A DNA stretch of 64,000 nt from a bacterium. Its GTDB lineage: Bacteria > Patescibacteriota > Minisyncoccia > UBA6257 > 02-FULL-45-10c. Below, piece after piece: positions 1 through 17,204 of this stretch. Position 1 is the first letter of the stretch, and every line of letters begins with the position of its first letter. The stretch covers positions 64,794 to 128,793 of the forward strand of contig JAJYMK010000001.1 of NCBI GenBank assembly GCA_021786945.1, in the 5' to 3' direction. Below the pieces are notes generated by a model. That model was not told where the DNA came from, searched no databases, and saw only the letters and a program-made list of their open reading frames with translations. Position numbers and translations under genes: made by a program.

Positions 1-48
1 GAAATGAAATGGGTGCGATGTTAGGAAACGCAATGAAGCAATAAACCT

Positions 49-288
49 ATGAGCGAAAAAATAAACAAACAAACCGAGGAAACCATCAGCAATTTGTACG
101 AGACAAAGTATTTTGAAGCTTTGTCCGACCTGATTGCCGATGAATTGGAAATAACCAAGACTTGGTTATTAAACAAAGGATTGCCCACCGATGACATTCG
201 GCACTATCAAGGTCGAGCCGAAGGGTTGGGAGTCGTGTTGCTTAGAATAAAAGCAATTCATGACGAATTTATAAAACCAAAAATATGA
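49..288 (+). CDS. hypothetical phage protein (79 aa)
   Basis: ORF in the phage block, followed by an inverted repeat and an intrinsic terminator. Confidence 0.3.
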   Translation: MSEKINKQTEETISNLYETKYFEALSDLIADELEITKTWLLNKGLPTDDIRHYQGRAEGLGVVLLRIKAIHDEFIKPKI

Positions 289-310
289 AAACCTGATAAA
301 AACAATTTAA

Positions 311-373
311 GGAAATCGCCAAAATTTTGAGAGGTTCAGCTGGCCTCTTGAGATGGGATTTCTGGCGATTTCC
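311..373. promoter_or_regulatory. Perfect 11-bp inverted repeat (GGAAATCGCCA ... TGGCGATTTCC) flanking a ~40-nt interior that contains a CAGCTG palindrome. Possible regulator-binding or packaging-related element.
   Basis: Read directly: left arm 311-321, right arm 363-373. CTTGAGA is repeated three times nearby. Confidence 0.3.
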
Positions 374-390
374 ACATCTTGAGAAGCCAA

Positions 391-418
391 CCGAGCCTCC
401 ACAAAGGGGCTCGGTTTT
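391..418 (+). terminator. intrinsic terminator (CCGAGCC-loop-GGCTCGG followed by TTTT)
   Basis: GC stem 391-397/408-414 followed by a T-run. Confidence 0.5.
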
Positions 419-491
419 ATTAACAGACGGACGCTTTGAAAGTCTTTCGTGAGGTCAGACTGGAAAAGAACAATCCGCCATTAATACGCCT

Positions 492-1346
492 ATGGAAAAA
501 CCAAACAATTCCGGCGCCGATCCGAACGCAAAGCCAGAGACTCCGTCTTTTGACGATGCAGTCGGAAAGGAACAACCGGTCAATTCAGTTCCGTCAGGCA
601 CTCCGAGCGGAGAGCAACCTGACAAAAAACCAGACGCTAAGGGTGAACAACCTAAAGATCAATCTGGCGACACGCCCAGCGATAAGGGCGAAAGTCCCGA
701 CGGTAAAAAGTCCGAGGGCGATAAATCCTTCTGGGGAAAGTTTAAGAGCGAGGATGATGCTAAACGCTCGTATGACGAAGCCCAGACCAAGATCATCGAG
801 CAAGGAAAAGAAATCAATGATTTGAAAACCCAACATGAGAAAAATGAACAGTTTCTCTCTGTGTTGGATCGAGCATTGGTTAAAAATCCGCAATTAGCCG
901 AACAGTTAAAAGCGGTACTTGCCGAGACCATGAAGTCCGGCGAATCGGAGCCGGAGGATACGCCCGACATAGAAGCTATCCTCGACAAAAAGCTTGAGGA
1001 AAGAGAAACCAAAGCAAAAACCAAAGCGGAAATTGATAAGTGGATCGAGGAACACGAGGACTTCAAAGAACCAGAATTGGGACACAAAGTTCTCGACATC
1101 ATCGAGAAAGAAAAACTGCCATTCAATGCTCGCACGCTTCAATTGGCCTACGACTCCATCACCAAGGATGCCCAAGCCAAGAAAGCAACCGAGGAAGCTT
1201 TGAAAAAAGAGGAAGTGAAAAATCTTGAGCGTGAAAATGCATCAGGTGTCGGAGGCGGTTCACCAACTACCAAAGGCCAAACGCCCAAAGATAATCCCTT
1301 TGACGATCTTGTGGGCGAAAGTATCAACCCAAACAAAGTCAGGTAA
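492..1346 (+). CDS. putative phage scaffolding-like protein (284 aa; acidic and Lys-rich, predicted coiled coil)
   Basis: K/E/D-rich low-complexity N-terminus followed by a heptad-like helical region. It sits immediately upstream of the capsid-like gene, the typical scaffold-to-capsid order. Confidence 0.35.
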   Translation: MEKPNNSGADPNAKPETPSFDDAVGKEQPVNSVPSGTPSGEQPDKKPDAKGEQPKDQSGDTPSDKGESPDGKKSEGDKSFWGKFKSEDDAKRSYDEAQTKIIEQGKEINDLKTQHEKNEQFLSVLDRALVKNPQLAEQLKAVLAETMKSGESEPEDTPDIEAILDKKLEERETKAKTKAEIDKWIEEHEDFKEPELGHKVLDIIEKEKLPFNARTLQLAYDSITKDAQAKKATEEALKKEEVKNLERENASGVGGGSPTTKGQTPKDNPFDDLVGESINPNKVR

Positions 1347-1405
1347 TGCTTATTAGATTTGAGGTCTCGTGAGCGGTTACCGGCTTTCTAACATAAAACA
1401 AAATT

Positions 1406-2629
1406 ATGTCTGAACCAACCCATCTCATCGGAACGAGGAACACACTGACGATTGAACAATCACAGCGTATTCCCGATGTCGATGACAAAATATTCCTTCT
1501 TGAACCAGGCGAATCACCGCTCACTGCTTTCTTGACCCAAATCGGAAAGATTGGTGACGGTGGAGGCAAGTTCAAAGGAATGGCTCTCCAAAAAAGAGTC
1601 GTCTATAACCCGGAGTTTACTGAATATGAGGATCAGTACTCCGGTGTCTGGGCTCGAATTAACAACGGCGGTGGCTACCTCGTAGGTGCAACCGACATTG
1701 TTGTCGATAGTCCAGGTGCCTCAATTTTCTCCAAGTACGATCTGATTAAAAACACTCGTACCGGTGAAATCATGAGAGTCACCAATGTTAATTATTCCAC
1801 GAACACTCTAACCGTAAGTCGTGGAGCCGGTGCCACTGCGGCGGCCGCCATCAATGATGACGACTGGCTATTGGTCATCGGTCCTGCTTTTGAGGAAGGA
1901 TCAAAGTCTGGTGATTCCAACACGACCAAACTCGTGAAAGTCACCAACTACACCCAAATCTTCAAAACAAAATTCGGTGTCACTCAAACCGAGAACGCTT
2001 CGAAGCTCTATCCATCCGGTGCTCCGGGTGCGGACTTGAAGTACCTGCGTGCAAAGCATGGTATCGAGCAAGCAAAGAAAATCGAACGCGCGTATTGGTT
2101 TGGTGAAAAGAAAGAAGTCACCGGTCCCGATGGTAAACCACTCCGCTTAACTGGAGGTATTTTGGAATCCATCATCGCCGCCGGAAATGTGCAAGATGAA
2201 TCAAGCTCGAGCTTAACCGAAGCCGAATTCCGATCATTCTTGCAGAACTATGCCTTTAAGTATGGTTCAAGCGAGAAATACTTCTTCTGTGGCAATACTG
2301 TACTCGGTTATTTGGAAGGCTTTGCCACGAGCAAGATGTATGTCGTTCCAACCGATAAGACATACGGAGTAGAAATCCGTAAATTCCAGTCTTCATTCGG
2401 TACCTTGAACATTGTTCGTCACCCGATGTTCGACAATCAGTACGCCGGAATGGGAGTCGTATTGGATCTTTCAACCTTAAAGCATTGTCCTCTGAATGGT
2501 CGAGACACTTCTCTCGAAACCAACATTCAGGACAACGATGCTGACGAGGAAGTCGACCAATACAAAACCGAAGTCGGTTTGCAGAGAGTCAACTTCGAAA
2601 AGAACGCTTTGCTTAAGGGTGTTGCCTAA
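1406..2629 (+). CDS. putative phage major capsid protein (407 aa)
   Basis: Size and position directly after the scaffold-like gene. An RBS-like AAAACAAAATT precedes the ATG. No specific motif was recognised, so the call is by synteny only. Confidence 0.45.
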   Translation: MSEPTHLIGTRNTLTIEQSQRIPDVDDKIFLLEPGESPLTAFLTQIGKIGDGGGKFKGMALQKRVVYNPEFTEYEDQYSGVWARINNGGGYLVGATDIVVDSPGASIFSKYDLIKNTRTGEIMRVTNVNYSTNTLTVSRGAGATAAAAINDDDWLLVIGPAFEEGSKSGDSNTTKLVKVTNYTQIFKTKFGVTQTENASKLYPSGAPGADLKYLRAKHGIEQAKKIERAYWFGEKKEVTGPDGKPLRLTGGILESIIAAGNVQDESSSSLTEAEFRSFLQNYAFKYGSSEKYFFCGNTVLGYLEGFATSKMYVVPTDKTYGVEIRKFQSSFGTLNIVRHPMFDNQYAGMGVVLDLSTLKHCPLNGRDTSLETNIQDNDADEEVDQYKTEVGLQRVNFEKNALLKGVA

Positions 2630-2733
2630 ACCTGACCAAGGCTCTGCTCTGACTCGCTGGCCTCCACTCTGTGGAAGCCAGGAGTAAGGGCGGATGCCAG
2701 ATAAAAATTAAAAACTTAATTAATAAAACTTAT

Positions 2734-3090
2734 ATGGCTAAATTTAATTCCCATATCAAAAGACTCAAGATCGTCCTTAAACCGGCTATGCCGATATTTG
2801 AGGGTGGATTAAAAATCGGCGATCAGCCGGGAGTTTACGCTCTGTTCGAAGATGGTCAATTTGAGACCAAGGATGAGGAAATCATCAAACAACTTGAGGG
2901 CTTAGACACATTCAAAATAGATTTTTGGCGTGTGTCTGGTGAGTCCAGTCCAGTCGAGGACACTACAGTCGACAAAGACTTTGTGAAGCTAACCAAAAAA
3001 GAGCTTCAATCTCTGGCAAAAGAAAAAGGTGTTGAGGTCGACGGCACTGAAACAAAAGAAAGACTGGTCGAGCTTTTGACCGACAAATAA
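2734..3090 (+). CDS. small phage protein with a C-terminal Rho-N/SAP-like helix-extension-helix motif
   Basis: ORF track begins at 2671, but 2671-2733 is AT-rich intergenic-looking sequence; in-frame ATG at 2734 (MAKFNSH...). The C-terminus KKELQSLAKEKGVEVDGTETKERLVELL resembles a Rho_N/HeH motif. Confidence 0.4.
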   Translation: MAKFNSHIKRLKIVLKPAMPIFEGGLKIGDQPGVYALFEDGQFETKDEEIIKQLEGLDTFKIDFWRVSGESSPVEDTTVDKDFVKLTKKELQSLAKEKGVEVDGTETKERLVELLTDK

Positions 3091-3123
3091 AACCTTAAGG
3101 GGTCGATAATCTAAAACAAACTT

Positions 3124-3903: not shown

Positions 3904-3919
3904 AAGAAATTAAAAAGCT

Positions 3920-5473
3920 ATGGCTAAAACTTTCTTAACAAAAAAGAATAACGCCAAAAGCACAACCACGGACAATCCATTGCTTTCGGGTGCGACTGTC
4001 CTCAATGTGCAGACCGGTGATGGGGTGAAGTTTCCATCGGCACCATTCCACGCCACGCTTTACTCAAGCGATCCAAGTGTGGGAGAAATTGTGAAAATAA
4101 CAACGATCGTAACCGATCAATTCACAATTGAACGAGCCAAAGAAAACACCACTGCCCAACAATGGCCTCAAGGTACACGCCTTGAACTTTTGGTGACAGC
4201 CAAGCTTTTTGACGACTTCCAAACAAGAACCGAAGTAATCGTAGCGACAGACGGATCGGGCGACTATAACTGCGACGGCACGGCCGATCAAACAGAGATT
4301 AATGAAGCTATAAGCAATCTGCCAGCCGGTGGCGGAATCGTAAGAATCAAGAAAGGAACTTATAACCTGACTGGTGTCGTTGAGATCTTAAAGAGCAATG
4401 TCATTCTCGAGGGCGAAGGGACAGCAACACTTTTGCGTGTCGCAAACTCTGCCAACTTGGGAGATGTTGTGAGAATTGGAAATGGTGGAAGTGTCAGCTA
4501 CACCAACATCACGGTCCGAGACTTTATGATCGACGGCAACCAAGCCAATCAGACATCGGGTGCCAATAGTCCTCTCGTGCTTTGGGGAACTGCATCGTAT
4601 AAGCACAGCAAACTGACAATAGAAAACTTATGGCTTACTGGTGCGAAACAAGATTGCTTAAAAGTCATTGCCATTGAGGATAGTGTAATAAAAAATTGTT
4701 ACATCTATTCAAACACCGGAACAGCAATCGGATTATTCACCAGCTCTCAATACATCAGCATCATTGGTAATGTGCTGGCTTCAAATTCTTACGGAATATA
4801 CGACAACGCTTGCAACTACAACACCATCACCGGAAATGTGATCCGAAATAATGGCTACGGCTTTTATGTAAACAGCGGGTGGCGAGAAGTATTCACAGGC
4901 AACATGGTGTTCACCAGTACAAACTACGGGGTCTATCTCGTTGGTGCTCAAAGAGTGGCCGTAACTGGAAATCACTTCTACGGAGATAGCTGGAGTATTG
5001 TAGTTGGCAATAGTACCAATGCCACTAAATACAATGTGATCACTGGAAACACGATCACATATCCTACCAGCCAAGGCATTGCCCTCTACTACGGTTCGGG
5101 TACGACAGTCAGCAATGTTATAAGCGGAAACCACATCTTCGGTGCCGGTGGACATGGGATATATCTTTATGGATCGTCCTTCAACACAATCACCGGAAAT
5201 GCGATTGATAATGCTTCGAGAAATGCAAACAATACCTCGAACAGCATCTACCTATCGAACAACGGCTCAGTCTATTCAACCTACAATGTGATCTCGTCAA
5301 ACAATCTTCATGCCACGCAAACTAACAAGTCCGCCTATCACATCAGAGAGCAAAGTGCGAGCGATGATTATAACTTAGCAATCGGCAATATTTGCAATGG
5401 TGGGGTCACAGCTCAAATCAGCTTACAAGGAACCAATTCAGTGAGAGGAACTAACATACCGGCTTCCGGTTAA
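3920..5473 (+). CDS. right-handed parallel beta-helix (pectate-lyase fold) protein, a putative tail spike or fiber with a possible glycan depolymerase function
   Basis: Many PbH1-type repeats (e.g. IIGNVLASNSYGIYDNACNYNTITGNVIRNNGYGFYV; ITGNTITYPTSQGIALYYGSG; ITGNAIDNASRNANNTSNSIYL). Confidence 0.65.
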   Translation: MAKTFLTKKNNAKSTTTDNPLLSGATVLNVQTGDGVKFPSAPFHATLYSSDPSVGEIVKITTIVTDQFTIERAKENTTAQQWPQGTRLELLVTAKLFDDFQTRTEVIVATDGSGDYNCDGTADQTEINEAISNLPAGGGIVRIKKGTYNLTGVVEILKSNVILEGEGTATLLRVANSANLGDVVRIGNGGSVSYTNITVRDFMIDGNQANQTSGANSPLVLWGTASYKHSKLTIENLWLTGAKQDCLKVIAIEDSVIKNCYIYSNTGTAIGLFTSSQYISIIGNVLASNSYGIYDNACNYNTITGNVIRNNGYGFYVNSGWREVFTGNMVFTSTNYGVYLVGAQRVAVTGNHFYGDSWSIVVGNSTNATKYNVITGNTITYPTSQGIALYYGSGTTVSNVISGNHIFGAGGHGIYLYGSSFNTITGNAIDNASRNANNTSNSIYLSNNGSVYSTYNVISSNNLHATQTNKSAYHIREQSASDDYNLAIGNICNGGVTAQISLQGTNSVRGTNIPASG

Positions 5474-5477
5474 AACT

Positions 5478-6947
5478 ATGTTCAACGCTTATCAATTCAA
5501 CACGGCTCAACTAAACAACACCGGTTCAAAGCCAATCGCTAAAGCCGTGAGTTATGCGTTGGATGTATTCGGACTGGTAAGCAAACAGATCACATACTTG
5601 CTTGATAGTTTCGTCACAATTTCGCATGCCAGAACATATATCCTCGACATCAAGAACTTAATGGCAAAAATAGAAACCTACATTCTCGATGCTTTCGGAC
5701 TTTCAAACAGGATGACTGCCTACAAGTTTGATGTTAGGAGTTTGATTGTCAAAATGGAATCTTATGTTTTGGATATATTTCAAACAATCACAAAAAGCCT
5801 GACATACAGATTCGACATCAGAATCATCGTTGTCAAAACAGAAAGATACATCCTCGATGTGTTTGGATTAATTGCGAAACTGATCGCTTATAAACTCGAT
5901 ATCAGAAACCTTGCCACGAAACTTGAGACTTATGTTTTAGATATTCGCCTAAAGGTGAATAAAACTGCATCATACCTCTTCGACATAATTGGTGGTGCAT
6001 GGCTTGGATTGGTTTATAAGTTGGATGTTAGAAACATCACCACAAAGAGTATGGCGTACCGGTTTGATGTTCTGATCACACTCGGCCGAACGATAACCTA
6101 CAAGTTTGATTCTTTTCTCACGGCTCTCAAACAGTCGATATACAAATGGGATATAAGAAACACGGCTCAGAAGTTAATGGCCTATGTGATGGACATCAGA
6201 AATACGATTGCCAGATTGGAAACATACAAGCTTGATGTTAGAAACTTGGCCACCAAGATTGAAAGATATTTGATCGACATCAGAAGTCTCACATCCAAAG
6301 CTTGGACTTACATCTTGGATATAAGAAATATTGCCGGTAAGACTGAAAGTTATTTGCTCGACATTAAAAACCTTATTGCCAAAAACACCCGATACTTGTT
6401 TGACTCGCTGATCACTGTTTTGAGACAGACAATCTATCTCTTGGACATCAGGAGTTTAACAACCAAAGCAATGCGATATGTGTTGGACATTCAAGTGCTG
6501 ATTGCCAAGTTGGAAACTTATAAATTAGACATCCGCAACCTTGCCACAAAGATCGAAAGATATGTACTGGATATCAGAAGTTTGATTGCTAAAACCGAAA
6601 CCTATCTCTTGGACATCCTAAGCAAGATTACGAAATGGTGGACTTATAAATTAGACATTCTGATAACCACCGGCAAGCAATGGACATACTTATTCGACAT
6701 TCGAGGATTGATTGCGAAAGTCTGGAGTTATCGCTTCAGGATTTGGAAAATTATTGAGGGTGTAAAAATAGCGGTTGAATTCTTATCTGCAAAACTGTCG
6801 GTCCTAATGCTTAACGCCAGAGAGTCGCTTGGATTAGTTAATGCTAGGACAAACATTGAGGTCAAAAATGCCAAACAAGATCAATCATTGCAATCAGCAA
6901 GATTGGATGTCGGTCTTGGTAAAGGCAATAAAGATATAAAACTATGA
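5478..6947 (+). CDS. phage protein made almost entirely of ~28 tandem 14-residue repeats (consensus Y-x-L-D-I-R-N-L-A-T-K-x-E-x); probable fibrous tail or receptor-binding shaft
   Basis: Translation shows strict 14-aa periodicity from roughly residue 25 to 415 (YKLDIRNLATKLET / YVLDIRSLIAKTET / YLLDIKNLIAKNTR ...). Placement between the tail spike and further structural ORFs supports a fibre role. Confidence 0.6.
   Translation: MFNAYQFNTAQLNNTGSKPIAKAVSYALDVFGLVSKQITYLLDSFVTISHARTYILDIKNLMAKIETYILDAFGLSNRMTAYKFDVRSLIVKMESYVLDIFQTITKSLTYRFDIRIIVVKTERYILDVFGLIAKLIAYKLDIRNLATKLETYVLDIRLKVNKTASYLFDIIGGAWLGLVYKLDVRNITTKSMAYRFDVLITLGRTITYKFDSFLTALKQSIYKWDIRNTAQKLMAYVMDIRNTIARLETYKLDVRNLATKIERYLIDIRSLTSKAWTYILDIRNIAGKTESYLLDIKNLIAKNTRYLFDSLITVLRQTIYLLDIRSLTTKAMRYVLDIQVLIAKLETYKLDIRNLATKIERYVLDIRSLIAKTETYLLDILSKITKWWTYKLDILITTGKQWTYLFDIRGLIAKVWSYRFRIWKIIEGVKIAVEFLSAKLSVLMLNARESLGLVNARTNIEVKNAKQDQSLQSARLDVGLGKGNKDIKL
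5553..6723 (+). repeat. 42-bp in-frame degenerate tandem repeat array (~28 units) inside CDS 5478..6947
   Basis: Recurrent tacaagcttgatgttagaaacttggccacc-type units visible in the nucleotide sequence. The repeat is coding, not CRISPR. Confidence 0.6.
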
Positions 6948-7258
6948 GCGTAAAAATTGTTCAAGACGATACAAGACCACCACTGGAATTCAATCTGACT
7001 CAAGATGGTTCACCTGTAGATTTAACCGGATGCACGGTCAAATTCTACATGAAAGATGCCACCAGCGGATCAGTAAAAATCAGTGGTAGTACTTGCGTGA
7101 TAACCGATGCCACCAAAGGTAAATGCAAATACCTCTGGACTTCATCGGATACCAACACAGCCGGAACTTATGTGGGAGAGGTTGAGGTCACTTTTCCTGA
7201 CGGAAAGATTCAGACCGGCTATAAACAAATCGGAATCACAATAAGAGCTGACATCTAA
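6944..7258 (+). CDS. hypothetical phage structural protein (104 aa)
   Basis: ORF overlapping the upstream stop codon (ATGA); beta-rich composition. Confidence 0.35.
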   Translation: MSVKIVQDDTRPPLEFNLTQDGSPVDLTGCTVKFYMKDATSGSVKISGSTCVITDATKGKCKYLWTSSDTNTAGTYVGEVEVTFPDGKIQTGYKQIGITIRADI

Positions 7259-7262
7259 AACT

Positions 7263-7895
7263 ATGACCAGAGGCGATATAAAAACAGCAATAAAAAACGA
7301 AGTCGATGATCAGACCGTTGACTCAACACTGCTCAACACATGGGTTCAAAGAGCCGATGAGAAAGTGCAGAGTTGGCGTCCATCGGATGATCGAGATCAG
7401 ACATTTGATTATTGGGATTATCTCAAAACCGAACAGCCGTTCACAACGGTTGCCAATCAAGAGAAATATCCAGTGCCAGAAAATTATCGTGCGTTCATCG
7501 AACTAAGAATCGGAACGGATAAAACACCTTATAAGCTGATCGACTTCCGAGACAGAGACAAGTTTGATGACCATGCGGTGTATATGCTGGGCGGTTATTT
7601 CTACCCGATAGCGACACCAACAATTGATGGTAATGCCATGAGGTTTGTCTTTGTCCGAATATCCGATGACTTTGCGTCCGACAATGACGAACCGGAGGTC
7701 GAAAAACTCTACCACCAAGCCTATGTCGAGTGGGGTAAGAAAATGTACTACAACCAACAAGGCGACACTGAATTGGAACGACAGGCCGAGAATAACTTCG
7801 AGAGAACAATGATTGGTAAATGGCGTGATCAAGAATTAGCCAGAATGTCTTCAGCTTCGGATCAAGCCGAAATTCCAAGAAGTAGTCTTGTATAA
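7263..7895 (+). CDS. hypothetical phage protein (210 aa)
   Basis: ORF in the structural block. Confidence 0.35.
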   Translation: MTRGDIKTAIKNEVDDQTVDSTLLNTWVQRADEKVQSWRPSDDRDQTFDYWDYLKTEQPFTTVANQEKYPVPENYRAFIELRIGTDKTPYKLIDFRDRDKFDDHAVYMLGGYFYPIATPTIDGNAMRFVFVRISDDFASDNDEPEVEKLYHQAYVEWGKKMYYNQQGDTELERQAENNFERTMIGKWRDQELARMSSASDQAEIPRSSLV

Positions 7896-7904
7896 ACAAC
7901 AACT

Positions 7905-9596: not shown

Positions 9597-9600
9597 ACAT

Positions 9601-9998: not shown

Positions 9999-10004
9999 AA
10001 TCAT

Positions 10005-11333
10005 ATGGCTCAAATTACCATACAAAAAGGTCAAACATTATCGGGAATCGCCAAACAGCAAGGCACCACTGTTGATGCGATCATGAAAGCCAATCCGACC
10101 ATCAAGAATGCCAACCTGATATATGCAGGTTCTTCCTTAAATTTGCCCGGATCACCAACTTCACCCGTTGTTGCCCCTAAGGCGAGCGTTCCGAGCCCAA
10201 GTCCCACCGTGACACCTTCTTCGACCGTAACACCGCCCGTTGCCCAAAATTCGAGCCCGGGGACAAGCTCTGTCCCAGCCAAAAGCACCCTTTATGGGAC
10301 GGAAGTGCCTTCTAACACATCTTTGCTTAAACAATACCGGTCCGAACTAGGTCTCGATTCAACGCTTAAAAGCATGCAGGATAGCCAGACTTCCTACCTC
10401 GATACTCTCAAAAATTTGCCGAAAAAATCTGACATCTATCAGCAAGAAAGAACTAAGAGAGGGATTGATACGATGCAAACAAACTTAAAAAGTTTGGATG
10501 ATCGATTGGCCACAATGGAGGAAGCAATCAATAGTTCGGAAAAAGATATCCGAGATAGGACTGTCGCAAGTAATGGCTTGGTAACCGAGAGCCAAACACA
10601 AAGACTTGTAGCTTCCGAAAAGCAACCGCTGATTGATGAATACAGAAAATTATTGAATGAAAGAAATAGGCTTGCGACTGAAATGGGTACGGCTGATGCA
10701 TCCGCAAAAGAAATGGCTGGAATGCAATATGAGGATTCAACACTACCTTTGACCGTAGCAGAAAAAACTCTTGGATTCCAAAAAGATCAATACAGTGTGC
10801 TCGGTGATATTTTAGGCCAAGTATACGGTGCCTCAGAAAAAGATGTCGCCAATTTAATTGATTCTGCTAAATACGGAAAAGAACAGGAAAAGAAAGATGC
10901 TCAAGATGTGATAGATCGTGCCTTGAAACTTGCCCAGCTGGCCAATGATACTCCAGCCGGAACCGTGCTTGATGTGGGAGGAAATAAAGTAGTCGGACTT
11001 AAAGGAAAAACTGGAAGCGGTTCAGGAACCGACGGCAATGATGTTGAAGCTTACGCTTTGGAACTCTTAAACAATCCAAACTTCTCAATCAGTAATGTGC
11101 CTCAAAGTATTCGAGGACAAGTGATCACAAAAAGAGATCAGATTAAAGCTGAAGCGGAAACTTCGATGGCAAACAGTACGCCAGCGATGATAGACAACAC
11201 TCCTCCGATAACCGCACAACAATTCGGGGCTGGTTTACAGGATGTATTCACAAAGCAAATACCGGGAGTGGCAAAAAATGTGTGGGGTGGAACGAAAGGA
11301 TTCTTCAAAGGTCTTTTCGGTAGCGGAAATTAA
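10005..11333 (+). CDS. LysM domain-containing phage protein with a Pro/Ser/Thr-rich linker (442 aa)
   Basis: N-terminus IQKGQTLSGIAKQQGTTVDAIMKANPTIKNANLIYAGSSLNLPG matches the LysM consensus, followed by a PSPT-rich low-complexity linker. Confidence 0.65.
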   Translation: MAQITIQKGQTLSGIAKQQGTTVDAIMKANPTIKNANLIYAGSSLNLPGSPTSPVVAPKASVPSPSPTVTPSSTVTPPVAQNSSPGTSSVPAKSTLYGTEVPSNTSLLKQYRSELGLDSTLKSMQDSQTSYLDTLKNLPKKSDIYQQERTKRGIDTMQTNLKSLDDRLATMEEAINSSEKDIRDRTVASNGLVTESQTQRLVASEKQPLIDEYRKLLNERNRLATEMGTADASAKEMAGMQYEDSTLPLTVAEKTLGFQKDQYSVLGDILGQVYGASEKDVANLIDSAKYGKEQEKKDAQDVIDRALKLAQLANDTPAGTVLDVGGNKVVGLKGKTGSGSGTDGNDVEAYALELLNNPNFSISNVPQSIRGQVITKRDQIKAEAETSMANSTPAMIDNTPPITAQQFGAGLQDVFTKQIPGVAKNVWGGTKGFFKGLFGSGN

Positions 11334-11338
11334 AACTT

Positions 11339-14300
11339 ATGGCATATCTTAAAGACCCAAAAACTGGAAAATATATAGTCACTGATACAGCACCAACTGC
11401 AACAGTGAAAACTTCTGTCCCAACTTCTGCTGGGAACATTAAGTACGGTAAAAATGCCCAAGGCGGATACACAAAAATTGAGACGGACACATCTGCTGGA
11501 ACTTCTGCAAAACCAAACATCACCACAGTGGCCGGACTTAAAGATTACGCCTTAAAAAATAATGTTGATATTTCTGATGCCCAACCCCAAGAATCAACTC
11601 TGCAAAAAATTCTCAATGTCTTAAATACCGGTGCGTACGCTGTGGGAGGACTTATAAGTGGAAAAGGAATCGTTAAGGGAATCCAAGAACACACATTGCC
11701 ATCCGAAGCGTTAGGAATAAAAAACAAGATTGGAGGTTTTGTTGCTGATGTCCTGCTTGATCCAACCACTTACATAACATTCGGTTATGGTAGCGGTGCG
11801 AAACTTGCAACAAAAGCTGGCGAGGTTGTGCTTAGTAAAACAGGAACCAGTTTGCTTAAAAAATCCATCATTGAACTTGGCGAGCAAGGTGCGAGAAAAG
11901 CTCTTGCTGAAAAAGTTTTGCAAGAAGGAGGCGAAAAGTTATTAGCTAAAGGCGGTTTGAAATTTGCTGGAACTGAAATATTGCCCCGTAAGGTCGTAAC
12001 CGCACCGTTTAAGATCGCAGACACTCTTGTAGAAAAAACACCTGTGGTCGGAAAATTATATCAAGGTGCAAAAGACTTGGCCGGTAAAGCATTTGTACCA
12101 TTCAAATCAATTAAAGATATGCCGGGTGGAATAGGCCAACAGTATGTCGATAAATTTTCTGACTTCAGTAAAGCAACAAGATCGGAAGTCGGCAAAGCTG
12201 TTGAGGAAGTATCGGCTCTCGGAAAAACAGCTAAGAAAGAACTGGGAGATAAAGCTGGAATTGAGGTCGGGAAAATACTTGAGAATGTACCTAAACCTCA
12301 AATGCCACTGCCGAGAGCCCTTGAACCAATCAAAGACATGGTCAAAGGTGTTGATCTTGGGGACATAAAAGGAGTCGACCGAAATAATATCGTAGACATG
12401 AAAGTATTTGGGTCTTCTGTTGAGGGGAAACTAAAACCGAATGATGTTGATGTTTTTGTGAAAGTAAAAGACGGCTCGATGAAGTTTAAAAATGCTGGCG
12501 GTCTTCCAAGCCCGATAGTCATCAAGAAAGGAAAAGTCCAATACTTTATCATGCCTGAAAGCCAAGGCGATGAATTACTGGATGCAATGCTTTATACCGG
12601 CAGAAAAGATCAGAGTCGCTTGTATTCCGGAACGGCCGTAAAAGTTCCAAAACCTTACTGGAACGGAATGATGAAAGTAAACGATGATACTGCACAAGCT
12701 GGAAATAAAGTTATAAACGAGATCACTGACTACATAAGAGGCCAGCATAAATCATTTGCCACTAAAGAAAAAGAAAGAGGTCTCCTCGACTACACTTTGC
12801 CTGATTATCTTCGTCACTACCTGACACCAGAGGGTCGTGATTTCTTACAGAAAGGAAGTGCAAATATTACTGGGGAGTTAAACAAACCATTGCGAGTAAA
12901 AACACCATTTGCCAAAGAAAGAGAGCTGAACGACACGATCGGTGGAATCAATAAATACTTCCAAAAACAATACGGTGTCAGCCAGATGTTCGAAAGCGAT
13001 GCGTTCAAAGCATTCGCGGCTCGAAAAGCCGAACACATCAAAGCCGTAAATACCTACGACTTCCTGACCAATGTTGGAAAAGAATTCGGACGACCAGCAG
13101 AGGTAATGACTAAAGAAATCAAGAATCCAGTAACTGGAAAAATGATAACCAAAGAGATCACGAAGCCAATCTACGAAAACGGAATCAAATACATTGAAAG
13201 TTCAGTACCACAACTTAAAGGAACGCTTTTGCCAGAGCAGATTGTAAAGCATGTTGATGACACTTATAAAGTTTTAACCAACGAGGAAGCAACGAAAAAG
13301 TTTCTCGGTCTTTATGATAAAGTTTTGAATTTTTGGAAAGGATCGGTCACTGGATGGTTTCCAGCTTTCCACACACGAAACTCAATCGGTGGAATTTTTA
13401 ACAACTGGATTGCTGGTGTAAAAAGTCCGACTCGCTATCTGCAAGCTGATCAAATTGCCAGAGGTGCTGAGGGTGCAATAACCACTCAGATCGGGACGAA
13501 ATACACATATAGCCAGATAAGAGATGTTGCCAACAAACTGGGAGTCGTGGGACAGCCGGGTTATTTGGATGTCATGAAAGAAGTAGAAAAGGATATCGGA
13601 AAAGGTCCGGTGGCAAAACTGATGGATACACCTAAAAAAGCGATGGAGATTGTGGAAAACAGACTTCGTTTGCCTTTATTTGTTGATCGCTTAATTAAAG
13701 GCGATGCACCTGAACAGGCGGCCAAGGCCGTGTTCCAATTCCACTTCGACTACGCACCGGAAGCATTAGCACCTTTTGAACAGAACATAATGAAGCGTTT
13801 GTTGCCATTTTATAAGTGGACTCGTGGCAACATTCCACTTCAGCTTGAGCAAATGGTAAAACAACCCGGAAAGTATGCTGGAATCGGGAAAGCCGTACAG
13901 GGATTGCAGTCAGACAAAGAAAAAGCCAAAGAGGAATTTTCAATACTGCCTCCTTATATGCGAGAGGGTTTGCCAATCAGACTCGGCGAAAAAGGCGGAT
14001 TCTCACAATACCTATATGGACTGGGGTTGCCGGTCGAGGATGTAAACAGACTATATAAAGGAAGTGCCAAAAGAACACTGGCCAGTTTTATTGGTGAATT
14101 ATCTCCGCTTCTTAAATATCCAATCGAAGCTGGAACAGGACAAAACTTATTCACTGGTGAACCGATAGAAGCAAACAACAATGTCTATCCATTCATGAAT
14201 AAAGTCCCAGGACTCCGTGACTGGCTTGAAGTGACAGAAAAGAAAAATAAGGATGGATCAACGGGTTATGTCGCCAATGCTTATAAACTCCACTTCCTGA

Positions 14301-14524
14301 ACACTGCGTTGGGGAGATTCTACACTACAGCTGGAAAACTGACCGATGATAAAACATCCGGTGCGGTTAAGTTTTTGTACGGACTGATTGGTGCAAAAGC
14401 AAAATCCGTAGACATCGAAAAAGAAAAGTTTTGGCGTGATCAAGAACAACAAGACAGTCTTGAACAAGCTTTGCAAAATAGAGGTCTCCTAAAACAGTAT
14501 CAGAGGGCATATGTCCCAAAATAA
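11339..14524 (+). CDS. very large phage protein (1061 aa) with an embedded minimal nucleotidyltransferase (pol-beta superfamily) motif
   Basis: Segment MKVFGSSVEGKLKPNDVDVFVKV fits the GS-x(9-13)-DxD minimal NTase signature. A Gly/Ala/Lys-rich N-terminus precedes it. Position after the LysM gene and before the lysis genes. Confidence 0.45.
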   Translation: MAYLKDPKTGKYIVTDTAPTATVKTSVPTSAGNIKYGKNAQGGYTKIETDTSAGTSAKPNITTVAGLKDYALKNNVDISDAQPQESTLQKILNVLNTGAYAVGGLISGKGIVKGIQEHTLPSEALGIKNKIGGFVADVLLDPTTYITFGYGSGAKLATKAGEVVLSKTGTSLLKKSIIELGEQGARKALAEKVLQEGGEKLLAKGGLKFAGTEILPRKVVTAPFKIADTLVEKTPVVGKLYQGAKDLAGKAFVPFKSIKDMPGGIGQQYVDKFSDFSKATRSEVGKAVEEVSALGKTAKKELGDKAGIEVGKILENVPKPQMPLPRALEPIKDMVKGVDLGDIKGVDRNNIVDMKVFGSSVEGKLKPNDVDVFVKVKDGSMKFKNAGGLPSPIVIKKGKVQYFIMPESQGDELLDAMLYTGRKDQSRLYSGTAVKVPKPYWNGMMKVNDDTAQAGNKVINEITDYIRGQHKSFATKEKERGLLDYTLPDYLRHYLTPEGRDFLQKGSANITGELNKPLRVKTPFAKERELNDTIGGINKYFQKQYGVSQMFESDAFKAFAARKAEHIKAVNTYDFLTNVGKEFGRPAEVMTKEIKNPVTGKMITKEITKPIYENGIKYIESSVPQLKGTLLPEQIVKHVDDTYKVLTNEEATKKFLGLYDKVLNFWKGSVTGWFPAFHTRNSIGGIFNNWIAGVKSPTRYLQADQIARGAEGAITTQIGTKYTYSQIRDVANKLGVVGQPGYLDVMKEVEKDIGKGPVAKLMDTPKKAMEIVENRLRLPLFVDRLIKGDAPEQAAKAVFQFHFDYAPEALAPFEQNIMKRLLPFYKWTRGNIPLQLEQMVKQPGKYAGIGKAVQGLQSDKEKAKEEFSILPPYMREGLPIRLGEKGGFSQYLYGLGLPVEDVNRLYKGSAKRTLASFIGELSPLLKYPIEAGTGQNLFTGEPIEANNNVYPFMNKVPGLRDWLEVTEKKNKDGSTGYVANAYKLHFLNTALGRFYTTAGKLTDDKTSGAVKFLYGLIGAKAKSVDIEKEKFWRDQEQQDSLEQALQNRGLLKQYQRAYVPK

Positions 14525-14756
14525 AAATATGGATAAAACAGAGTATCAAAATCAAATACAAGACGAACGACTTGATCGAGTCGAGAAAACCGTAAACGAA
14601 ATCAAAGATAATCATCTCGTTCACCTACAAGAGGATGTAACGAAAGTCGGGACTGATGTCGACTGGCTCAAGCGTTTCTTTTGGATCTTGGCTACCGCAT
14701 CCGTGGGAGGTCTTATAACCGCCTTAATTAATTTACTAATAACAATCGATAAATAA
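14511..14756 (+). CDS. putative holin (81 aa; single C-terminal TM helix)
   Basis: C-terminal hydrophobic segment FFWILATASVGGLITALINLLITI; lies immediately upstream of the amidase endolysin. Confidence 0.45.
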   Translation: MSQNKNMDKTEYQNQIQDERLDRVEKTVNEIKDNHLVHLQEDVTKVGTDVDWLKRFFWILATASVGGLITALINLLITIDK

Positions 14757-14761
14757 AAACT

Positions 14762-15331
14762 ATGAATATCATTCAAAAGAAATCACCAAACTTCTGGGCT
14801 GGTCGCAACAGTTATCGTCCGGAAGCAATAGTCATTCACATTATGGATGGCACGCTGGCCGGAACCGATGCGTGGTTTACAAACCCATCTTCGCAAGTAA
14901 GTGCTCACTATGGCATCGGAAAGAATGGCGAAGTGCATCAGTATGTAAAAGAGGAAGATACTGCTTGGCACGCTGGACGAATAGACACACCAACTTGGAA
15001 GTTTATTAAACAAAAGGTAAACCCCAACCTCTATACAATCGGAATTGAACACGAGGGAAAGCCTGACGACATATGGACTGAAGCAATGAAACAAGCGAGT
15101 GCGATGATGATCCACGAGATCTGCCAACGCTGGCAAATACCGGTCGACCGTGATCACATCGTTGGCCACTTTGAGATTTACTCAAAGAAACCGAATTGTC
15201 CGGCAACTGATAAGCGGATATTGGACGAGCTTGTTGCCCTTGCCAGTGATCACACACCAAATACCTCAGTCGAGGATGGTGTGAGAAAGATTGAGGAGGG
15301 GCTGGCCATTATAAAGAAAATAATTTATTAA
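14762..15331 (+). CDS. N-acetylmuramoyl-L-alanine amidase (Amidase_2/PGRP fold) endolysin
   Basis: IVIHIMDGTLAGTDAWFTNPSSQVSAHYGIGKNGEVHQYVKEEDTAWHAG matches the Amidase_2 N-terminal region; C..H..C zinc-ligand-like residues are present. Confidence 0.8.
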   Translation: MNIIQKKSPNFWAGRNSYRPEAIVIHIMDGTLAGTDAWFTNPSSQVSAHYGIGKNGEVHQYVKEEDTAWHAGRIDTPTWKFIKQKVNPNLYTIGIEHEGKPDDIWTEAMKQASAMMIHEICQRWQIPVDRDHIVGHFEIYSKKPNCPATDKRILDELVALASDHTPNTSVEDGVRKIEEGLAIIKKIIY

Positions 15332-15334
15332 CCT

Positions 15335-15553
15335 ATGACAACACCACAAAAAGAAGCATTAAAGCACCTAGCGATCGTTTTCCTTTACTCCGGAGTCTCA
15401 TCAATCCTACCGATCGTTTTGGCTTATGTAGAGCATGATCCACGCTGGACACTGCTGATACCACTTATAAACTCGGCTTGGTATGCCGTGAGTCGATACC
15501 TCAAGGAAAGTAAGTTAATTGAGGAGTCCGACACCAAGGGAGACCAATTTTAG
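15335..15553 (+). CDS. small two-TM membrane protein (72 aa), possibly a lysis accessory (holin or antiholin-like)
   Basis: Two hydrophobic helices; last gene of the phage block. Confidence 0.3.
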   Translation: MTTPQKEALKHLAIVFLYSGVSSILPIVLAYVEHDPRWTLLIPLINSAWYAVSRYLKESKLIEESDTKGDQF

Positions 15554-15625
15554 CTAAATTAAGCAAATCCCGATTAATAGACCTTTACAGCAAATGTCGG
15601 AACCTCAAAAGAGGCTGGATTTTCC

Positions 15626-15654
15626 TTGTAAAATAACCGTAATTGGCGTATAAT
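15626..15654 (+). promoter_or_regulatory. sigma70-like promoter candidate (TTGTAA, 17-bp spacer, TATAAT) upstream of mltG
   Basis: -35 element at 15626-15631 and -10 element at 15649-15654, read directly. Confidence 0.35.
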
Positions 15655-15728
15655 TTTATCAATACGACCATAAGATAAGGTCTTTAAGGCGAATACCGGT
15701 TCAAAGTTCCGGACATCGTCACCGCCAA

Positions 15729-16709
15729 ATGACTAGATCTAAATCAATAACCATTTTAATATTGGCAATATTTTTCATTTTATTGATGGGATTATTTTAT
15801 TTTTGGTTTTTCAGTGCCCCCCAAAAAAATAAAGAATCGGAAAGATATATAATCCCACTTAATTTTTCGGCAACAGAAATATCTAGTGATTTAAAAACAA
15901 ATGGATTTATCAAAAATCAATTAGCTTTCGATTTTATAATTTCAATTAAGAGTGGCTTGAGTAATATAAAAGCCGGCGGCTATAAAATTTCCAAATCAAT
16001 GAATGTCTGGGAAATAACAGATATTTTAATAAAAAAACCATATATGGAATGGGTAGTAATTCCCGAAGGTTTGCGCAAAGAAGAAATTGCCGAAATTCTT
16101 GGCCAAAAACTAAGCTGGAATAGCGATAAAAAAGAGAATTGGCTAAAAACCGCCACAACTCAAAAACCGGAATATTTTGAGGGAGTTTACTTCCCTGATA
16201 CATATTTAATTCCTATAGACGAAACCCTTCTTCAGATAGCAGCCCGTCTTCAGGCTAAATTCCAGGAAAAATTTACGCCCTATGCCAAAGAAGCGGCAAA
16301 CCAAAACATAAAATGGGATACGGCACTAAAGATAGCGTCAATAATCCAGCGAGAAAGCGCAGGAAAAAACGACATGCCAATTATTTCTGCGGTAATCTGG
16401 AATAGACTTTTACAAGGCATGAAGTTGGATATAGATGCCACAATTCAATATGCTCGAGGCAATACGGGGCAAGGCTGGTGGGCGCCAATAAACGTAAGTG
16501 ATAAACAAATAAATTCTCCGTACAACACTTATAAATACAAAGGGCTGCCGCCTCACCCTATTTGTAATCCGGGATTAGACGCCATAAATGCCGTTTTAAA
16601 CCCAGCCAAAACCGACTGTCTTTACTATCTGCACGACAGCTCAAAAACAATCCATTGCGCCGAAACATACGAAGAGCACTTACAAAACATACAAAGATAT
16701 CTAAAATAA
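15729..16709 (+). CDS. mltG: endolytic murein transglycosylase MltG (YceG family)
   Basis: N-terminal TM segment, then YceG-like conserved region LKIASIIQRESAGKNDMPIISAVIWNRLLQGMKLDIDATIQYA. Confidence 0.75.
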   Translation: MTRSKSITILILAIFFILLMGLFYFWFFSAPQKNKESERYIIPLNFSATEISSDLKTNGFIKNQLAFDFIISIKSGLSNIKAGGYKISKSMNVWEITDILIKKPYMEWVVIPEGLRKEEIAEILGQKLSWNSDKKENWLKTATTQKPEYFEGVYFPDTYLIPIDETLLQIAARLQAKFQEKFTPYAKEAANQNIKWDTALKIASIIQRESAGKNDMPIISAVIWNRLLQGMKLDIDATIQYARGNTGQGWWAPINVSDKQINSPYNTYKYKGLPPHPICNPGLDAINAVLNPAKTDCLYYLHDSSKTIHCAETYEEHLQNIQRYLK

Positions 16710-16758
16710 AAAATCCCCTATTCCTCATGAATAAGGGATTTTTCATATATAAATTTTA

Positions 16759-17097: not shown

Positions 17098-17204
17098 ATT
17101 TTTATTATTTATTAATTATCTGACCTTATTTAATAATACGTATCAAAATACAAATTTGGTGCATTTGAGTAGAATATTAAATAGAAAGGATTTATAATAA
17201 AATT

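Follow-up and report, generated by a model that had tools for sequence, protein, structure and literature searches.

Phages that integrate with large serine recombinases, such as phiC31, Bxb1, TP901-1 and A118, encode enzymes with the domain order Resolvase, Recombinase and Zn ribbon, and use short att sites in which attP, an imperfect inverted repeat, adjoins the integrase gene, whereas attL and attR share almost no identity. Insertion at the 3' ends of tRNA genes, with regeneration of the tRNA and an integrase gene that lies next to the junction and reads towards it, characterizes the P4, P22 and HP1 type, in which the integrases are tyrosine recombinases and usually tens of bases of tRNA 3' sequence are duplicated. 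Archaeal fuselloviruses of the SSV1 type also use tyrosine recombinases as integrases; these target a tRNA gene, and the integrase gene, which contains attP, is split into two large parts on integration. In the mycobacteriophages BPs and Brujita, which encode tyrosine integrases, attP is located inside the repressor gene, and the repressor of the free state and that of the integrated state differ in their C-termini. Integration-dependent immunity has been reported for these two phages (PMC4557955). Among the Candidate Phyla Radiation (CPR), the accessible parts of earlier reports describe a 27-kb Roizmanbacteria prophage that is polymorphic or circularizing (PMC6509639) and prophages of Absconditicoccaceae (PMC13059738), and mention neither a serine recombinase nor integration at tRNA-Ser nor an attP within an integrase gene.

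When examining a stretch of 64,000 nucleotides (hereafter, the window), we arrived at a reading that we consider highly probable, namely, that positions 1-15,721 are the rightmost 15.7 kb of a temperate phage, 36,416 bp in length and with a capsid and an adaptor of the SU10 type, that was inserted by a large serine recombinase at the 3' end of tRNA-Ser(GCU) in a Patescibacteria chromosome, with attP inside the recombinase gene. This phage shares with phiC31, Bxb1, TP901-1 and A118 the domain order of the recombinase, a YxRVSTxxQ motif that aligns with the TP901-1 integrase, and the layout of the att sites. Unlike these phages, it targets tRNA 3' ends with a variable right half-site, has a CPR host, and carries attP within the recombinase open reading frame, so that the C-terminus of the predicted enzyme changes on integration. 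The insertion at a tRNA 3' end, the regenerated tRNA and the integrase gene reading towards the junction are as in the P4, P22 and HP1 type, but this enzyme belongs to the serine family and the duplication is only 6 bp long. A tRNA-integrating phage of the tyrosine-integrase type was rejected: in the annotated portion of the element, which comprises all but about 1.4 kb of the window-type copy, the serine recombinase is the only recombinase and no tyrosine recombinase (Phage_integrase) is found.

As judged from sequence, the phage resembles the SSV1 type in having attP in the integrase gene, a tRNA target and a gene partitioned on integration, and resembles BPs and Brujita in that the integrated and free forms of a phage gene containing attP would encode different C-termini. 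By contrast with the former, the bacterial serine recombinase loses just the last 50 codons and gains a tRNA-antisense tail, and with the latter, it is the recombinase gene itself rather than the repressor gene that is cut; assignment to the SSV1 type was rejected given the serine enzyme and the bacterial host. In comparison with the Roizmanbacteria and Absconditicoccaceae prophages, as far as these are described in the accessible parts of the two reports, the present case is likewise an integrated tailed phage in a small CPR genome, but the host lineage and the phage are different.

Prophage junctions and the empty site

The junction at 15,721/15,722 is a genuine prophage-host attR. The features that surround it are as follows.

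15574..15726, minus strand: apparent detached 3' end of the phage serine-recombinase gene (50 codons at 15,577-15,726 and the TAA stop at 15,574-15,576)
15626..15654, plus strand: outward-facing promoter-like site TTGTAA-17-TATAAT, 75 nt upstream of the mltG ATG
15698..15721, unstranded: attR P arm, the last phage-only bases (GGTTCAAAGTTCCGGACATC + GTCA), present in all phage copies whatever the flank; inverted repeat of the attL P' arm
15722..15727, plus strand: CCGCCA, the sole attL/attR identity; last acceptor-stem bases, discriminator and CCA of tRNA-Ser
15729..16709, plus strand: host mltG (YceG family; PF02618, E = 3e-73), the first host gene past the prophage

The window-type junction recurs in three other assemblies at 99.97-100% identity (contig L004, 99.966% over 20,570 nt; L005 and L008, 100%). 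The reciprocal attL was read on the L004 contig itself (L044), which matches the window at 99.97% identity over the junction, and places the left end of the prophage about 20.7 kb upstream of the window start. On the attL side, there is an intact tRNA-Ser, identical to the empty-site copy, and the neighboring phage genes encode a 524-aa serine recombinase, a 240-aa HTH_3 CI-like protein and a 68-aa HTH Cro-like protein; a related copy (L049) shows a weak Peptidase_S24 match. The empty site is found on a contig from the same species (L011/L045), where tRNA-Ser(GCU), at 3333-3422, ends 1 nt before an mltG gene encoding an identical protein. Homology of this contig to the window begins exactly at 15,722 and extends over 11 kb at 99.3% identity, and removal of the 36,416 bp restores the empty site exactly. 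The two junctions attL and attR and the restored empty site are all accounted for, as are the integrase and lysogeny regulators beside attL and the packaging, virion and lysis genes.

A prior sequence-only reading of this DNA had left the choice between a prophage that extends upstream, beyond the window, and a chimeric phage/host join. The same-species empty site, together with the attL and the recombinase on the L004 contig, bears out the former, whereas the recurrence of the junction in three other assemblies, the matching attL and the restored empty site refute the latter. On other contigs that carry this phage, the upstream search for an integrase, a terminase or att sites that it proposed yields the recombinase and attL (L004 contig) and the terminase (L001). 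The same reading was right that the window lacks an integrase, a repressor, a terminase and a long att repeat, all such genes being upstream of the window start, but its statement that the tRNA genes are 11 kb away and not at the junction was wrong or incomplete: the junction is the 3' end of tRNA-Ser(GCU), and the intact tRNA is at the far end of the prophage.

Under the proposed mechanism, the recombinase would join the short attP to the host tRNA-Ser(GCU) 3' end by a crossover in the final acceptor-stem bases, so that an intact tRNA is re-formed at the far, left-hand end. The crossover probably falls within the first CC of CCGCCA, with CC being the likely exact dinucleotide. Because the crossover is at the end of the acceptor stem, only CCGCCA is common to both junctions. 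This whole arrangement explains why neither an att repeat nor a tRNA nor an integrase is visible in the window.

The late-gene block and its composition

The long open reading frames between 49 and 15,553 are all on the plus strand, several with short overlaps, and this layout, along with the Pfam matches, agrees with the previously suggested one-strand block of overlapping phage late genes. The recognizable genes of the block are listed below.

1..44, plus strand: 3' end of the portal gene (624 aa; the remainder is upstream of the window, L001:7679-9553 corresponding to window -1830..44)
492..1346, plus strand: 284-aa acidic protein between the portal and capsid genes; identical protein on 5 contigs
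1406..2629, plus strand: major capsid protein, SU10 type (PF17236 SU10_MCP, E = 1e-39)
3920..5473, plus strand: right-handed beta-helix protein, tail spike or fibre (PF13229, E = 4e-28; PF05048, E = 5e-17)
5478..6947, plus strand: 489-aa protein with about 28 phased 14-residue repeats (Y-x-[LF]-D-[IV]...)
6944..7258, plus strand: BppU_N-domain baseplate- or fibre-associated protein (PF10651, E = 1e-12)
7263..7895, plus strand: head-tail adaptor, SU10 type (PF24175 SU10_adaptor, E = 1e-16)
7905..9596, plus strand: 563-aa virion protein, conserved in all related loci; its position suggests a tail or nozzle role
10005..11333, plus strand: 442-aa protein with an N-terminal LysM domain (PF01476, E = 4e-12)
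11339..14524, plus strand: 1061-aa protein with a GS...DxD nucleotidyltransferase-like motif, recognized by sequence, at 12,404-12,460
14511..14756, plus strand: small, probably holin-like protein with a C-terminal membrane helix, directly upstream of the endolysin gene
14762..15331, plus strand: endolysin, N-acetylmuramoyl-L-alanine amidase (PF01510 Amidase_2, E = 5e-28)
15335..15553, plus strand: 72-aa two-helix membrane protein, the last plus-strand phage gene; present in all copies

The Pfam matches confirm the Amidase_2 endolysin and the LysM protein that had been noticed earlier; in the latter protein, PHROGs matches to transglycosylases and endolysins are confined to the LysM part. The portal protein weakly matches PHROGs portal and head-tail adaptor families (phrog_1216, E = 1e-5; phrog_332, E = 1e-6), and the large terminase, encoded upstream of the window on L001, matches phrog_2 (E = 2.5e-19). 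Neither Pfam nor PHROGs contained a significant match for the 284-aa acidic protein, which, by position, might be the scaffold protein, a match above threshold for the 489-aa repeat protein, with 27 motif matches spaced by 14 residues and a single 28-residue gap that implies a 28th unit, or a family for the 563-aa virion protein; the 1061-aa protein has no Pfam match.

The capsid and adaptor proteins belong to the same Pfam families as those of Escherichia phage SU10 (Kuravirus), but the phage described here is temperate and its genome is only 36.4 kb. Among the capsid matches listed, SU10 is absent, and the best isolated phages are Roseobacter CRP-810 and Vibrio, Microcystis, Caulobacter and Pseudomonas 119X-like phages, at 27-30% identity; given this low identity and the 36.4-kb temperate genome, membership in Kuravirus or an SU10-like group was rejected. 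By analogy with the nearest relatives, the virion is likely to be short-tailed.

The sharp compositional boundary that drew attention to this locus is real. The GC content is 43.1% in 1-15,550 vs 36.2% in 15,551-64,000, with means in 500-bp windows of 0.431 (sd 0.028) and 0.362 (sd 0.039; Mann-Whitney p = 1e-12), and maximum likelihood puts the best single change-point near 15,540, where GC3 and tetranucleotide usage shift as well. Tetranucleotide correlation with the host mean is 0.60-0.76 for the three 5-kb chunks of 1-15,000 vs 0.945-0.99 for the chunks of 15,001-60,000. GC at the three codon positions is 48/39/43% in the late genes vs 44/33/34% in the host genes; the elevation thus extends to third positions, which makes the step more than an amino-acid effect. 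The phage/host junction is about 180 bp to the right of the change-point, which refines the earlier observation. The ~175-bp spacer before mltG, within which the switch had been placed, is phage DNA up to 15,721 and contains the att P arm and a conserved minus-strand frame of 50 codons that is in phase with the recombinase gene.

The lysogeny module, located at the opposite prophage end, is equally GC-rich (GC3 44.6%), whereas cargo and restriction-modification genes inside the prophage have a host-like composition, so the elevated GC belongs to the phage core modules and not to the whole prophage. Core genes for lysogeny, packaging, structure and lysis, with about 43% GC and a foreign tetranucleotide signature, would accordingly generate the step against a host of 36% GC. 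Because of the host-like genes, GC alone cannot date the acquisition; the suggestion that the prophage was acquired very recently finds no sufficient ground in GC; the better evidence for it is that one species is polymorphic for the presence or absence of the prophage.

The serine recombinase gene and its apparent detached end

In the 524-aa recombinase, the Resolvase domain (PF00239, recorded in L043/L044, with E = 7e-30 in the L031 homolog) is followed by the Recombinase domain (PF07508) and the zinc ribbon (PF13408), and the sequence YGRVSTSRQAE aligns with YTRVSTTNQAE of the TP901-1 integrase catalytic domain (E = 3.5e-12). The serine catalytic domain, the domain order and the short att sites all indicate a large serine recombinase. 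The rebuilt attP is an imperfect inverted repeat, with arms GGTTCAAAGTT(CC)GGA(C/A)ATC flanking GTCACCGCCA on both sides, and between related phages (L041/L038) the arms covary (GGTTCAAAGTT.. vs GGTTCTAACTT..). No recombination directionality factor was identified. A scan of IMG/VR for the attP pattern gave one match, by chance, and no excised or circular form; in JGI, there were 6 composite P+P' sites, none with a recombinase gene behind.

Since attP is inside the recombinase gene, integration removes the last 50 codons and puts 17 tRNA-antisense codons in their place. When attP is rebuilt, the minus-strand frame at 15,574-15,726 continues the recombinase frame in phase. It is apparently the detached end of this gene, contiguous with it only in the excised circle, where the 50-codon tail would probably be translated. 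The tail peptide is kept in 12 further junctions, in which the open reading frames diverge exactly at the GG codons. On the plus strand of the same phage DNA, the outward promoter-like site, with 10 of the 12 consensus positions, is the best match in 14,400-17,200; its hexamers are kept in variants, although this conservation is confounded with the overlapping minus-strand frame. Conceivably, this site drives mltG once the tRNA-linked promoter is displaced.

We tentatively propose, as a possibility that falls well short of a probable one, that the free circle encodes a 557-aa enzyme with a conserved 50-residue C-terminal module, whereas the prophage can only encode a form with an arbitrary tRNA-antisense end, and that this difference could act as a built-in, integration-dependent switch of recombinase activity, stability or direction, for a serine integrase directed at conserved tRNA 3' ends in many CPR lineages, with the conserved outward promoter restoring the expression of whichever host gene comes after the tRNA.

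Alternative explanations and related elements

The 150 nt before the junction could, instead, be conserved as non-coding DNA comprising an att arm, the outward promoter and regulatory sites, with a fortuitous open frame and a recombinase that natively ends near attP, an explanation that we regard as doubtful. The near-consensus promoter indeed overlaps this region, and a search of about 15 billion sequences (5.8 billion clusters) revealed neither the rebuilt 557-aa protein nor, with the tail alone as query, any full-length tail-bearing protein, the only matches being junction frames. The first 20 tail codons are variable, one variant pair (L006/L009) has a dN/dS of 0.96, and the tails of the prophage-state enzymes vary freely in length between 3 and 55 residues, which means that the native one cannot be needed for every reaction. 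However, the in-phase frame is the only one that is open in all seven diverged variants, which differ in length by exactly 9 nt, an in-frame indel; dN/dS is 0.28-0.61 in the other 14 of the 15 pairs; variable sites among the 50 codons are at 32 third positions vs 23 first and 19 second positions; and the last 28 residues are nearly invariant over at least 18 junctions, with synonymous changes. Large serine recombinases need just about 50 bp of attP, so the site alone cannot explain 150 nt of conservation.

With respect to the prophage itself, an assembly or binning chimera of a free phage genome and a host contig, joined at about 15.6-15.7 kb, seems to us exceedingly improbable. Metagenome assemblies of this phage include tangled ones, such as that of L006, and an NCBI MAG contig (L046) breaks at the integration site, 168 nt from infB, but the identical junction was obtained in three other assemblies by two different assemblers, with the reciprocal attL on one of those contigs and the exactly restored empty site, and the 6 bp common to phage and host at the join are too few for a k-mer mis-join. 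That the element is a fixed, defective remnant or a domesticated, immobile one, so that the GC step is an old scar, is improbable as well: no excised form was found in any collection searched, few recognizable replication genes are present and decayed relatives exist, but the site is polymorphic in one species, with 99.3% identical empty and occupied flanks, copies 96.8-100% identical to the late region of the window are present at several other sites, the open reading frames of every module from recombinase to lysis are intact, and the detached tail is still under purifying selection. The GC step is very unlikely to reflect the amino-acid make-up or expression level of the structural proteins rather than foreign origin. 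The late proteins do contain more Ala, Gly and Thr and less Ile, Leu, Lys and Phe than host proteins, and GC1 and GC2 exceed those of the host by 4-6 points, but GC3 is 9 points higher (43.0% vs 33.6%), the tetranucleotide signature is distinct, the lysogeny module at the opposite prophage end is equally GC-rich, and the cargo within the prophage matches the host.

Relatives were found in 21 GTDB genome records, in several cases on contigs 0.5-0.76 Mb long, and the taxonomically consistent titles among these are of Patescibacteria lineages; IF-2 homologs are named Patescibacteria or Paceibacterota. The host is a member of Patescibacteria (CPR), Paceibacteria-like. Contig k141_59091 (L006) shares the attL but ends in another 170 nt that adjoins another right flank, a sign that assemblies of this phage can be tangled. 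Among the decayed relatives, the recombinase of L022 is truncated, and L031, a mini-element of 9.6 kb, lacks structural genes. The right end of the phage adjoins at least 5 different flanks, and the targets are the 3' ends of tRNA-Ser GCU and CGA and of other tRNAs ending in ..CCGCCA, with a variable right half-site.

Junctions, the unoccupied site and the far prophage end

Judged from sequence alone, the passage from phage to host DNA ahead of mltG could have represented either a prophage whose other end lies upstream of the window or a chimeric join. Exact-protein look-ups retrieved the same phage-mltG junction from three other assemblies: contig k141_1226158 of ERZ27237183 matches the window at 99.966% identity along 20,570 nt that include the join, and in SRR13201255 and SRR13178629 the junction is 100% identical to that of the window. 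A contig of SRR22746137 that encodes an identical MltG is devoid of the phage and displays the gene order patatin, tRNA-Leu, tRNA-Cys, rbfA, infB, tRNA-Ser(GCU), mltG, with 1 nt separating the CCA end of tRNA-Ser(GCU) from the mltG ATG. The window matches this empty site from exactly 15,722 onwards, at 99.3% identity over 11 kb. The IF-2 protein of the empty site was the handle by which attL was reached; the attL sequence was taken from k141_1226158, which is near-identical to the window's contig and in which an intact tRNA-Ser(GCU), the same in sequence as the empty-site copy, comes after infB. The distance between the two copies of CCGCCA is 36,416 bp, which puts the start of the prophage ~20.7 kb before the first base of the window. 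A chimera is ruled out by the independent copies of the junction, by the attL counterpart and by the unoccupied site; the attL and recombinase on the near-identical contig, together with the empty site, establish the prophage alternative. The sequence-only reading was correct that no tRNA gene lies beside attR in the window, but the insertion nevertheless is in a tRNA gene: because the phage entered the 3' end of that gene, the tRNA is now at the opposite end of the prophage.

Features of the prophage (window coordinates; negative values are upstream of the window; L001 is the contig covering the DNA upstream of the window and L044 is the attL part of k141_1226158)
Beside tRNA-Ser at attL, reading back towards the tRNA: recombinase, 524 aa, with Resolvase, Recombinase and Zn-ribbon domains
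After the recombinase: CI-like gene, 240 aa, HTH_3
Divergent from the CI-like gene: Cro-like gene, 68 aa
Beyond the Cro-like gene: HTH_36 protein
About -10,900 to -16,400 (L044 10-5469), prophage interior: cargo block
About -9,500 to -8,470 (L001 1-1042), strand opposite to the restriction-modification genes: Fic-domain protein
About -8,200 to -3,850 (L001 1274-5657), upstream of the terminase: type II restriction-modification pair (C5 DNA methylase and NgoFVII-like endonuclease), D12-class methylase, ParB_N
Upstream of the window: large terminase, 548 aa
Upstream of the window, its final 44 nt being the window start: portal, 624 aa
5478-6947, + strand, virion module: protein of 489 aa in which a 14-residue unit recurs ~28 times in perfect phase, Y-x-[LF]-D-[IV]-[RK]-x-L-x-x-K-x-E-T
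11339-14524, + strand, after the LysM protein and before the lysis genes: protein of 1061 aa with a VFGSSVEG...DVDVFV motif at 12404-12460

The empty site has no space for a separate mltG promoter, and mltG must be read through from tRNA-Ser there. In the lysogen, the best promoter match of the region, TTGTAA-17-TATAAT (15,626-15,654), is directed outward from the phage and lies 75 nt ahead of the mltG ATG; both hexamers are retained in variants, a conservation that is inseparable from that of an overlapping coding frame. We tentatively suggest that this candidate promoter might drive mltG in the lysogen.

Several other contigs bear on the state of the site. A 502,876-bp MAG contig of the same species, with an identical IF-2 (GCA_027424165.1, DAIBYD010000001.1), ends 168 nt from infB, at the tRNA-Ser/attL position, which suggests an assembly break on a lysogen/non-lysogen polymorphism. 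The attL and infB context of the window type recurs in the 125.6-kb contig k141_59091 of ERZ27236928, to which both L006 (10,790-11,164) and L043 belong; its last ~170 nt of phage sequence and its 200-nt right flank (56% GC) are unlike the window and resemble the L009 variant, which points either to recombination or to an assembly that switched between phage variants occurring together. The empty-site sample SRR22746137 also contains a 96.8% identical phage copy at another site (SRR22746137_30297, 10,965-20,570), followed by genes for a CsoR-like repressor, a P-type ATPase, HtrA and LeuRS in DNA of 36.7% GC; this copy belongs either to the same genome as the empty site or to another host.

Attachment sites and the recombinase gene

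The recombinase contains YGRVSTSRQAE, the serine-recombinase catalytic motif, and aligns with the catalytic domain of the TP901-1 integrase (E = 3.5e-12); an identical recombinase occurs on an NCBI contig of 696,638 bp. No tyrosine integrase is present in the sequenced parts of the element, which cover all but ~1.4 kb of the window-type prophage. The attachment sites read as follows.

attB: ..GGTTCGAATCCTTCCGCCTCCGCCA followed by AATGACT
attL: ..CCTTCCGCCTCCGCCA followed by GATTTCCAACTTTGAACC
attR (window 15,698-15,734): GGTTCAAAGTTCCGGACATCGTCACCGCCA followed by AATGACT
attP, rebuilt from the phage halves: GGTTCAAAGTTCCGGACATCGTCACCGCCAGATTTCCAACTTTGAACC

Serine integrases use a short site with inverted arms and no long repeat, and a long att direct repeat is not present here, which explains why none was seen on first reading; indeed, attL and attR have only CCGCCA in common. 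The arms of the rebuilt attP, GGTTCAAAGTT(CC)GGA(C/A)ATC, are inverted and flank a 10-bp centre. In a related phage inserted in tRNA-Ser(CGA) (IMG/VR contig 3300025154_002045), both arms read GGTTCTAACTT instead and, being altered alike, indicate that the attP arms covary. Comparison of all junctions confines the crossover to CCGC, in which CC is the sole non-palindromic dinucleotide at the centre of symmetry, and we infer that CC is the crossover dinucleotide. In the protein collection, all 33 close homologues of the recombinase have tRNA-antisense tails, which are of many kinds (SGGGGRIRTF.., SGGGSGIRTH.., SGGEGGI..), so that nearly identical enzymes reside in several tRNA genes ending in ..CCGCCA.

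In the lysogen, the recombinase open reading frame crosses attL into the tRNA antisense strand and stops after 17 host-encoded residues (..SGGGGRIRTFGGVSPSTH). Across the rebuilt attP, the same frame continues for 50 codons (window 15,726-15,577, minus strand) up to a TAA at 15,576-15,574, encoding the peptide GGDDVRNFEPVFALKTLSYGRIDKIIRQLRLFYKENPASFEVPTFAVKVY. This is the sole one of the six frames that is open in 7/7 diverged variants, and the length variants differ by exactly 9 nt. Variable sites fall in the third codon position in 32 of 50 codons, as compared with 23 in the first position and 19 in the second; pairwise dN/dS is 0.28-0.61 in 14 of the 15 pairs and 0.96 in the remaining one. 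The peptide is kept in 12 further junction ORFs of the protein collection, the unrelated N-terminal parts of which diverge exactly at the GG codons. Accordingly, the ~175 bp before mltG are not the mere spacer for which they had been taken but hold a conserved frame in phase with the recombinase; this stretch appears to be the detached tail of the recombinase gene, and the tail is probably translated.

No excised or circular form was detected in any collection searched. A 22-nt degenerate attP pattern had one match in IMG/VR, an unrelated, GC-rich chance hit; the rebuilt protein of 557 aa, looked up as an exact sequence, had no match among ~15 billion sequences; the full rebuilt protein as a query found only integrated forms with tRNA-antisense tails; and with the tail by itself as query, the sole hits were 12 small junction ORFs. 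A 30-nt attP pattern retrieved 6 contigs from JGI metagenomes (L050-L055) in which the P arm (the phage half-site at attR), the core and the P' arm (that at attL) are joined. These contigs, for example, Ga0172368_10021520 and Ga0210057_1003769, carry a conserved 47-55-codon tail on the P side, but a recombinase gene behind P' was found in 0 of the 6, host-like genes being there instead. Some of the P sides are without phage lysis genes, L055, for instance, having a LexA-like gene and a methylase. These might be junctions beside remnants of older insertions.

Phages with serine integrases and phages that target tRNA genes are each well known; to our knowledge, their combination in one phage is unusual. 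We found no published report of this phage or of a serine integrase whose gene extends across its own attP, although our coverage of the literature is incomplete and this is not proof of novelty. One of the two nearest analogues is the SSV1-type split integrases of archaeal viruses. The other is the integration-dependent immunity of mycobacteriophage BPs (PMC4557955). That attP lies within the integrase gene suggests a simple route by which a phage could give its recombinase different forms before and after integration. Serine integrases usually are independent of host factors, which makes the present one a candidate for a DNA-insertion tool in CPR genomes.

Composition and gene content

The contrast between a GC-richer block and AT-rich downstream DNA, described on first reading, holds in GC content, tetranucleotide usage and third codon positions. 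The GC content is 43.1% in 1-15,550 versus 36.2% in the rest of the window (p = 1e-12, 500-bp windows), and a single-breakpoint likelihood scan places the change at ~15,540. The tetranucleotide correlation with the host mean is 0.60-0.76 for the three 5-kb chunks of 1-15,000 and 0.945-0.99 for those of 15,001-60,000. Third-position GC (GC3) reaches 43.0% for the late genes against 33.6% for the host genes, a difference that rules out amino-acid composition as the sole source of the step. The lysogeny module at the far end of the prophage equals the late genes in GC richness, with a GC3 of 44.6%. The cargo block between this module and Fic is host-like (GC1/2/3 44/33/34; tetranucleotide r = 0.95), the restriction-modification genes are likewise AT-rich, and the early region of the relative L017 is 36-37% GC throughout. 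The step thus belongs to the phage core, not to the element as a whole; GC is a good boundary marker at the right end, yet, for this reason, by itself gives no date for the acquisition. Better evidence of recent mobility comes from the polymorphism between occupied and empty sites and from copies at other sites that share 96.8-100% identity with the late region of the window. One ordinary cause accounts for the absence of tRNA-Ser, for the "spacer" and for the GC step, a lesson for annotation.

The block is indeed a one-strand late-gene module: every long ORF in 49-15,553 is on the + strand, and the Pfam matches comprise a major capsid protein and an adaptor, both of SU10 type, along with beta-helix, BppU_N and LysM proteins and an Amidase_2 endolysin, the next gene being YceG/MltG. 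The capsid protein is at most 27-30% identical to that of any isolated phage. The 489-aa repeat protein, for which Pfam and PHROGs give no family match, may be a beta-solenoid or fibre. The 1061-aa protein has no Pfam family, but its VFGSSVEG...DVDVFV motif is similar to those of polymerase-beta-type nucleotidyltransferases, and this could be an internal protein that is ejected and that bears an enzymatic domain.

The 10 kb directly upstream of the window, read on a contig 99.98% identical to the first 6 kb of the window, encode Fic, the C5 methylase with the NgoFVII-like endonuclease, the D12 methylase, ParB_N, a small gene, terminase and portal; the restriction-modification pair is complete-looking. 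The cargo block comprises a CPC-motif P1B-type ATPase, two DsbA/thioredoxin-like proteins, a transglutaminase-core protein and a SufS-like class V aminotransferase; relatives have different genes at this position, for example, methylases, RadC, Fic and AbiEii. On the host side, a full-length tmRNA at 34590-34964 (+) scores 123 bits with Rfam and is absent from the ARAGORN output on the whole window.

Hosts and relatives

Phages of CPR/Patescibacteria are poorly known and genetic tools for these hosts are few; CPR prophages have been reported, but are few (PMC6509639, PMC13059738). The present analysis defines a widespread temperate lineage with attB, attP, attL and attR at base level and a serine integrase aimed at tRNA 3' ends. 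The named IF-2 homologues carry Patescibacteria, Paceibacterota or Pacebacteria labels. Among GTDB species-representative genomes, the phage D12 methylase as a query retrieved 21 loci with 84-99% identity, labelled Parcubacteria, Paceibacterota, Nomurabacteria, Magasanikiibacteriota and Kaiserbacteria; several are on contigs of 0.5-0.76 Mb, one of these a 742,714-bp chromosome. Other titles among these relatives (L017-L037), 'uncultured Gammaproteobacteria', 'Methyloversatilis sp.', 'Saccharibacteria' and 'archaeon' (the last on a 1.8-kb contig), look like placeholder labels, mislabels or mis-binned contigs. One relative, L031 (3427-13085), is a 9.6-kb mini-element between the same attL (tRNA-Ser GCU) and attR that encodes the recombinase, AbiEii, RadC, the D12 methylase and ParB_N and is devoid of structural genes; a remnant left by deletion and a satellite-like element are the candidate readings.
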